28,099 nucleotides of DNA from Escherichia coli (GTDB taxonomy: Bacteria; Pseudomonadota; Gammaproteobacteria; Enterobacterales; Enterobacteriaceae), in NCBI RefSeq assembly GCF_003334815.1, contig NZ_QOWO01000046.1, one strand, 5' to 3'. Shown here piece by piece: positions 21,685-22,314 of the stretch. The number at the start of each line of letters is the position of its first letter. Within the stretch, counting starts at the first letter, position 1. The position numbers and the translations under genes are program-made. A model generated the notes under the pieces. It ran no database searches. It had not been told where the DNA came from and saw only the letters and a list, made by a program, of their open reading frames with translations.

Positions 21685-22232
21685 TGCTTACTCATCAAAA
21701 GTAGCGCCAGATTCACTGCTCTTCACGGCAGATGGACGCCACATCGATTCATGGGGAGGAATAAAAAAAACCTTACAATCACTGTAGAAATTCTTTTATA
21801 CAGCTAATTGATGTGGTTTTTTACTCCTTTCTATAACCTTTTGTCAACTTTAACAAAAGTTTCTTCACATTAGTTTACATAATATCAACACCATTAGCAT
21901 TTAATGCCCTTTCACCCCAGATCCTTGACGACTCCAGGATAATTAGATGTTGTTGAATCGTGTCCGTTGTGAAGCAATGGAAAAAATACGGGTCTATTTT
22001 GACAGGAATTTGTGTCGATTCCTCCCCCCAAAAGAGAGTATTTTCTTGATCTGTGACACGCTTTTGTCATTCCATAACAAAAACGCAGCAACAAATTTAC
22101 GTATTTTTTAACATCATTGTAGCAGGTGATTTTTTTCAGGCGATTATTTGTGCGTTCGGGACGTGAATCTCTGGCGGTTGAAAAATGAACAGTTTTGTAC
22201 GTTCTGCACTATGCGATGAAGGATTTTTACTA
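21685..22232 (-). promoter_or_regulatory. nuo operon promoter and 5' control region (precise -35/-10 and regulator sites not resolved)
   Basis: About 550 bp of non-coding, AT-rich sequence between the nuoA start and the lrhA terminator, with A/T tracts (AAAAAAAACC at 21765-21774; TTTTTTACTCC). The nuo promoter is known to be controlled by several global regulators. Confidence 0.5.
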
Positions 22233-22280
22233 AAAAAAAGCCGCTGGGGTTTAAAACACCCCCAGCGGCTCGTTTTTTAC
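22233..22280. terminator. Rho-independent (bidirectional-type) terminator downstream of lrhA
   Basis: Perfect 12-bp stem AGCCGCTGGGGT (22241-22252) / CCCCCAGCGGCT (22261-22272), loop TTAAAACA. Flanked by AAAAAAAA on one side and CGTTTTTT on the other, giving a U-tract in either orientation. Confidence 0.8.
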
Positions 22281-22314
22281 ACTATTGTCTCAGGAATTAT
22301 CTATCGTCCGTCGA

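Follow-up and report, generated by a model that had tools for sequence, protein, structure and literature searches.

A probable intrinsic terminator between lrhA and the nuo control region of Escherichia coli

The nuoA-lrhA gap and its hairpin

How can lrhA be transcribed without its RNA polymerases running on into the control region of the nuo operon, which lies directly downstream and is read in the same direction? We examined this question in a window of 28,099 nucleotides, the whole stretch of DNA analysed here, which carries the E. coli nuoA–lrhA–alaA locus according to its ORF map and the RefSeq annotation of MG1655. Two SNPs (positions 22175 and 22585) separate the window from MG1655 over the 5.5 kb compared, and adding 2383388 to a window coordinate gives the coordinate in NC_000913.3. 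Window coordinates are used below, and the elements that frame the question are as follows.

21241-21684, − strand: nuoA (ORF map and annotation)
21682-21684, − strand: nuoA start codon (ORF map and annotation)
21685-22314: nuoA-lrhA gap, 630 bp
22315-23253, − strand: lrhA (ORF map and annotation)
22233-22314, − strand: 3′ UTR of lrhA, which runs for about 80-85 nt between the stop codon and the U-tract
22239-22270: terminator hairpin, with arms 22239-22249 and 22260-22270 and a 10-nt loop at 22250-22259 (palindrome, fold and covariation)
22232-22239: A8 tract on the + strand, which is the U8 of the lrhA-sense terminator on the − strand (sequence)
22273-22278, + strand: T6 (U6) tract, which serves termination on the + strand (sequence)

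The gap contains no annotated feature, and both the gap and the hairpin element within it are present in a single copy in 5424 of 5426 complete E. coli genomes. Its GC content is 0.387, compared with 0.534 for nuoA, 0.496 for lrhA and 0.506 for the window. The part between the nuoA ATG and the A-tract (21685-22231) is 547 bp long with a GC content of 0.378, in agreement with the first-pass annotation, which had described about 550 bp of AT-rich sequence upstream of nuoA. About a fifth of the complete genomes (1043 of 5424) carry a gap allele that is only 90-95% identical. In two such alleles, L082 and L083, divergence of the flanking coding sequence is about 1%, and the differences in the gap fall within non-conserved stretches and within the terminator loop and stem. 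A second large AT-rich gap of 920 bp, between lrhA and alaA (23254-24172), lies upstream of lrhA. Published Hfq-bound fragments from the lrhA 5′ UTR (PMC4152368) and 3′ ends at window positions 23303 and 23545 (Adams 2021, PMC7815308) point to post-transcriptional control of lrhA.

The hairpin is a DNA palindrome of 11 perfect Watson-Crick pairs, ten of them in a G+C-rich core (22240-22249 with 22260-22269). In the lrhA-sense RNA, an additional G·U pair between 22271 and 22238 extends it to a 12-pair stem. A perfect 12-bp stem had previously been placed at 22241-22272. The stem and its tracts are real, but the palindrome at 22239-22270 shows that this placement was shifted by 2 nt, and the twelfth pair is the G·U pair. 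The A- and T-tracts said to flank the hairpin on both sides were correctly recognized. The U8 follows directly 3′ of the lrhA-sense stem (22238-22232 plus the closing pair), and the T6 tract is, in the lrhA RNA, an A-tract upstream of the hairpin. A CG dinucleotide separates T6 from the stem, and the + strand RNA consequently reads as the hairpin followed by CG-U6. When folded, both RNAs pair the A-run with the U-run, and both are far more stable than expected from their composition. The lrhA-sense fold on the − strand has a free energy of -28.9 kcal/mol (z = -5.0), the + strand fold has -25.5 kcal/mol (z = -5.9), and none of 200 shuffled sequences was as stable in either case. B2-type E. coli alleles keep the hairpin, and their lrhA-sense version is weaker (-18.9 kcal/mol).

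The hairpin pattern occurs once in the window and in none of 100 shuffled windows. A simple promoter and terminator scan found no more sites than in shuffled sequence and did not list this hairpin, because the scanner limits loops to 8 nt. Immediately upstream of the hairpin in the lrhA 3′ UTR lies TGTAAGTGTAAAAAAG (22271-22283, − strand; alignment A1, columns 5-20), a sequence kept in many genera beyond the A-run itself.

Transcript ends on the two strands

We compared the hairpin with published maps of transcript ends and starts. In E. coli K-12, a study combining RNAtag-seq and Term-seq (the TRS study, PMC10687069) assigns the label 'Primary lrhA' to a 3′ terminus at 2405617-2405626, corresponding to window positions 22229-22238 on the − strand and lying in the U-tract (PMC10687069 supplements). 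Its read-through statistic is 0.96-1.0, on a scale where 0 denotes full read-through (PMC10687069). The same study folds the same hairpin, with a free energy of -28.9 kcal/mol and 8 U, and gives an lrhA 3′ UTR of 85 nt (PMC10687069). By SMRT-Cappable-seq, the lrhA transcripts that begin at 2406799 and 2406820 cover b2289 alone, and six nuo start sites map on the − strand at 21812, 21822, 21842, 21864, 21989 and 22109 (PMC6131387). Transcription of nuo therefore starts inside the gap, independently of lrhA, and the lrhA transcription unit ends before these starts.

In a separate dataset, the most prominent 3′ end of lrhA is at 2405672/3 (window 22284/5, − strand), and none is recorded in the U-tract (Adams 2021, PMC7815308). 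This position is 14-15 nt upstream of the terminator hairpin and, in our fold, on the 3′ side or base of a weak upstream stem in which the end of the lrhA coding region takes part. The 22284/5 end is probably a product of processing or decay. Neither lrhA nor nuoA appears in the table of Rho-dependent termination from the same work (Adams 2021, PMC7815308).

These observations bear out the proposal of the first-pass annotation that the terminator insulates the nuo promoter from lrhA, since the ends in the U-tract, the read-through statistic, the b2289-only transcripts and the separate nuo starts all agree with it. That annotation would have been refuted by substantial read-through into nuoA with no 3′ ends at about 22233-22245, which is not what the published ends at 22229-22238 and their read-through statistic show. 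As in canonical E. coli intrinsic terminators, a U-tract comes directly after a G+C-rich hairpin. This stem-loop and its U-tract, together with in vivo ends of low read-through and with compensatory changes in the stem, are what an intrinsic terminator is expected to display. Our literature search found no in vitro termination assay of the lrhA hairpin; we infer that in such an assay the terminator would act independently of Rho.

The hairpin also coincides with transcript ends on the opposite strand. The TRS study lists a + strand 3′ terminus at 2405662-2405671 (window 22274-22283), labelled nuoA.lrhA.IGR (PMC10687069 supplement 5), with a peak at 2405665 (window 22277), just past T6 (PMC10687069). 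Its statistic is 0.61, and it was significant in two of three libraries (PMC10687069). This terminus is missing from the Adams 2021 list and is supported by one dataset. With 3′ ends on both strands, the hairpin is experimentally bidirectional, and it is much weaker in the + direction. The suggestion that it could also terminate antisense transcription has accordingly found its counterpart in the ends at 22274-22283. The A8 and T6 flanks, which provide a hairpin followed by a U-tract on each strand, and the 3′ ends on both strands are features of the symmetric 'bidirectional' terminator class, as that class from SEnd-seq appears where the TRS study cites it (Ju, Li & Liu 2019, cited in PMC10687069). 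In that class, too, an A-tract lies 5′ of the hairpin and U-tracts are read both ways. Bidirectional terminators, however, are typically described between convergent genes, whereas lrhA and nuoA are co-directional and the opposing transcript is unannotated.

Taking the sequence and the published maps together, we conclude with a probability of about 0.9 that 22232-22278 is a strong intrinsic terminator that ends the lrhA mRNA, insulates nuo and also stops + strand transcripts. On the − strand, it would end a monocistronic lrhA mRNA about 80 nt past the stop codon, and, the mRNA being ended at the hairpin, polymerases from lrhA would therefore be kept out of the nuo regulatory region. On the + strand, the hairpin followed by CG-U6 would stop transcripts from the nuo region before they become antisense to lrhA.

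Conservation across the Enterobacteriaceae and competing explanations

We next asked how the arrangement is kept in related species. A scan for NuoA in species-representative genomes yielded 80 loci from Escherichia, Citrobacter, Salmonella, Enterobacter, Klebsiella, Kluyvera, Kosakonia, Cedecea, Buttiauxella and other genera, or 81 sequences including the window. In all 80 loci, lrhA lies directly upstream of nuoA in the same orientation. The gap measures 606-664 bp (about 630 bp) in 78 of the 81 sequences, despite containing long stretches that vary freely, and this constancy suggests that spacing or phasing matters. By a simple scan, 67 of the 81 sequences have a hairpin with a T-run at the same distance from the lrhA stop codon. 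Among these 67 hairpins, a 5′ A-run of at least 4 is present in 65 and a 3′ T-run of at least 5 in 64. The other 14 sequences have a different 3′ UTR geometry or are without a clean T-tract.

Covariation was tested in alignment A1, which holds 57 Enterobacteriaceae sequences. Within the terminator stem, 87% of cells are paired and 10 of the 12 pairs show compensatory changes. Double-change cells number 145, compared with 55±10 in shuffled alignments, and none of 500 shuffles reached 145. When the partner columns were slid by 1-3 positions, pairing fell to 45-62%. In 56-57 of the 57 sequences, four columns of A and four of T do not vary, and these tract columns are conserved more strongly than the stem itself. 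Free divergence of the sequence, with pairing restored by compensatory changes, marks an RNA helix rather than a DNA operator.

The strongest competing explanation concerns why the A-tract is kept. The hairpin may be a one-way terminator, in which the A-tract persists because its A:U pairing strengthens lrhA termination and the + strand ends are a by-product of pervasive transcription. Pairing of the A-tract reportedly contributes to terminator strength, a result attributed to Chen et al. 2013, and the pairing of A-run with U-run in our folds is of this kind. The + strand signal is also modest, in its statistic as in the number of libraries, and a cross-species alignment revealed no conserved + strand promoter upstream of the hairpin, where we likewise found no conserved RNA sequence or ORF. 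The same holds for small ORFs that end at the terminator; the ORFs of 37 aa and 54 aa that E. coli has on this strand show no conservation. Two observations weigh in the other direction: the A columns are as invariant as the T columns and exceed the stem in conservation, and the + strand terminus was observed at the distance expected past T6. We give this one-way explanation some weight, although we would not favour it. The A-tract may instead be kept to stop a real + strand transcript, coming from the nuo control region, before it becomes antisense to lrhA, and termination on the + strand would then itself be under selection. The two roles of the A-tract, in + strand termination and in the strength of lrhA termination, are not exclusive.

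A + strand transcript could also have a function of its own, with the hairpin serving mainly as the 3′ end or stabilizer of an unannotated + strand sRNA in the gap and lrhA merely sharing it. The + strand terminus is indeed annotated as 'IGR', and a hairpin followed by U6 resembles an sRNA terminator. We consider such an sRNA improbable because no part of the gap is less conserved than the sequence upstream of the hairpin on the + strand (120 bp, 22115-22232), and because no promoter, conserved ORF or Rfam family match was found; moreover, the lrhA-sense terminus is far stronger than that on the + strand. A simple scan found no promoter within the gap on either strand, no + strand gene is annotated there, and no + strand start site was matched in the Ettwiller 2016 supplements or the other datasets examined. 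The TERMITe supplement has no E. coli entry at the nuoA-lrhA locus.

The lrhA ends might alternatively arise from Rho-dependent termination, or from nuclease trimming that halts at a protective hairpin. Exonucleases working from the 3′ end are indeed blocked by hairpins, and the end at 22284/5 looks processed, but the U8 that directly follows a hairpin of -28.9 kcal/mol, the termini inside that U-tract and the absence of lrhA from the Rho table make this origin very unlikely. Least credible of all is that the palindrome acts as DNA, as a protein operator or a REP-like repeat: it is perfect and stands beside a regulator-rich region, but its pairing is kept by compensatory changes while its sequence diverges, 3′ ends map in the flanking U-tracts, and with only one site in each of 5424 genomes it does not qualify as a REP-type repeat.

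The nuo control region and the nuoA leader

Beyond the terminator, the remaining part of the gap is what we take to be the long AT-rich, multi-promoter nuo control region, with sites for ArcA, NarL, FNR, IHF and Fis. The nuoA-N regulatory region of E. coli and Salmonella is said to have been described by Bongaerts et al. 1995, Archer & Elliott 1995 and Wackwitz et al. 1999; the sequence considered here does not differ from it, because it is the same region. The remaining 550 bp or so would thus comprise the classical multi-promoter, multi-regulator nuoA-N control region and a long 5′ leader. Its main elements are listed below.

21812-21847, − strand: proximal nuo core promoter, with a −35 element TTGACA (21847-21842), an 18-nt spacer, a −10 element TAAAAA (21823-21818) and a start at 21812
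22109-22124, − strand: distal nuo promoter, with an extended −10 element TGcTACAAT (22124-22116) and a start at 22109 (2405497)
21995-22114, − strand: near-invariant upstream regulatory block, ATGTTAAAAAA ... AACAAAAGCGTGTCnCAGATCAAGAAAATAC ... GGGGGAGGAAT ... TCCTGTCAAAATA (conservation profile)

The proximal core promoter is about 99% conserved in the species alignment, and its TTGACA-18-TAAAAA arrangement is a sigma-70 holoenzyme site listed for nuoA by genomic SELEX (PMC3946193). The distal −10 element is specific to Escherichia loci (E. coli, the cryptic Escherichia L003 and, as a near-match, E. albertii) and is not conserved in other genera. Near-invariant blocks extend over 22114-21995, 21968-21945, 21880-21800 (the proximal core promoter) and 21775-21685 (the leader). 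The stretch that adjoins the terminator, 22232-22115, is poorly conserved, and an IHF-like WATCAR-N4-TTR motif within it is conserved in other genera and degenerate in E. coli. The fixed length of the gap and its invariant blocks fit a densely occupied regulatory region where spacing matters.

Regulator sites within these blocks, for which footprinting or ChIP data had been proposed as a check, are only partly located. Two ArcA binding regions upstream of nuo are reported from ChIP-seq (Park et al. 2013, PMC3798270), and consensus scans for FNR, CRP, IHF, NarL and ArcA placed no site convincingly in the gap. At 22061-22076 (− strand), a motif that is invariant elsewhere reads TGAATTAACAAAAGCG in other genera and GGAATGACAAAAGCG in E. 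coli, in K-12-like and B2-like alleles alike; E. albertii (L002) and L003 keep TTAAC. Judged from the sequence, the change from TGAATTAACAAAAGCG to GGAATGACAAAAGCG is a lineage-specific alteration in what is likely a regulator site. In the nuo-sense RNA, two conserved 10-mers 255 nt apart, GGGGAGGAAT (22027-22018) and ATTCCTCCCC (21762-21753), are perfectly complementary. We rejected long-range pairing between them, as GGAGG is replaced by GGATG or GAAGG in several genera without a compensating change, and each 10-mer is therefore conserved for its own reason.

Closer to nuoA, the leader contains a second conserved hairpin.

21701-21742, − strand: conserved nuoA leader hairpin (fold; 98-100% of cells paired in 49 species)
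21689-21701, − strand: U-rich tail and published 3′ ends in the nuoA 5′ UTR, with U4 at 21700-21697

Among the 49 species, three pairs of this hairpin show compensatory changes (for example GGCG/CGCU to GAUG/UAUC), its apical part is invariant and its U-rich tail is kept in most genera. Strong 3′ ends lie at 2405086 and 2405082 (window 21698 and 21694), 14 and 10 nt before the nuoA ATG (PMC7815308, PMC10687069). These ends carry an intrinsic-terminator score of 11.56 and the entry 'No' for Rho (Adams 2021, PMC7815308, supplements 1 and 3). In the TRS study the statistic of this terminus is 0.41-0.73, and the same terminus is listed for EPEC (PMC10687069). The nuoA leader ends appear only in supplementary tables, and a literature search found neither a paper pairing nuoA with leader termination nor a functional study.

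The element could be a partial terminator or attenuator, could give rise to a leader RNA of about 115-120 nt, or could be a structure of the translation-initiation region. It resembles the premature ends in 5′ UTRs reported by Adams 2021, such as that of the ispU leader, in combining a hairpin and U's with abundant 3′ ends and no Rho dependence. It differs from those leader terminators in that its U-tract has only 4 nt and no sensing mechanism is evident. A hairpin and U-tract with in vivo 3′ ends in a 5′ UTR are expected of an attenuator and are found here; of the sensing devices, we saw no conserved leader peptide, riboswitch or antiterminator helix. The open reading frame MWRPSAVKSSESGATFDE (21687-21743, − strand) starts with ATG, spans the leader hairpin and terminates 3 nt short of the nuoA ATG. 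As a conserved uORF it was rejected, since its frame and peptide differ between genera and it is absent in 25 of 81 species. An alternative long-range helix, GGGGAGGAAU/AUUCCUCCCC, was rejected as an antiterminator because it is without compensating changes, and an Rfam scan of 21200-24300 at a permissive threshold gave chance-level matches only. We therefore regard it as possible, but doubtful, that the hairpin and U-tract (21742-21697) act as a regulated intrinsic attenuator that aborts or passes transcription depending on conditions. If so, transcripts that begin at 21812 and are aborted would be released as a stable leader RNA of about 115-120 nt.

Over the nuoA start codon lies AAGCAAUG (21682-21689, − strand), which is the same in all species and exactly complementary to RyhB nt 49-56. 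For the seed duplex, the free energy is -19.2 kcal/mol, which 21 of 1000 shuffles reach in a seed-restricted test, a modest signal; folding of the full-length RyhB-nuoA duplex gave nothing different from shuffles. The complementarity of AAGCAAUG agrees with the status of nuo as a known or predicted target of RyhB.

The terminator and the nuo control region are already documented for E. coli K-12. Because they are mapped in published K-12 datasets, the finding is an ordinary one, and its confirmation changes nothing. The comparison across genera adds that both flanks of the terminator are equally constrained and that the spacing of the control region is fixed. The one item here that possibly deserves an experiment is the nuoA leader element, which is testable as a control point for complex I; if it proved to be an attenuator, it would constitute an unrecognised layer of post-initiation control for respiratory complex I in the Enterobacteriaceae. 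The locus as a whole shows how a regulator gene and a heavily regulated respiratory operon, read in the same direction with 630 bp between them, are kept transcriptionally apart.
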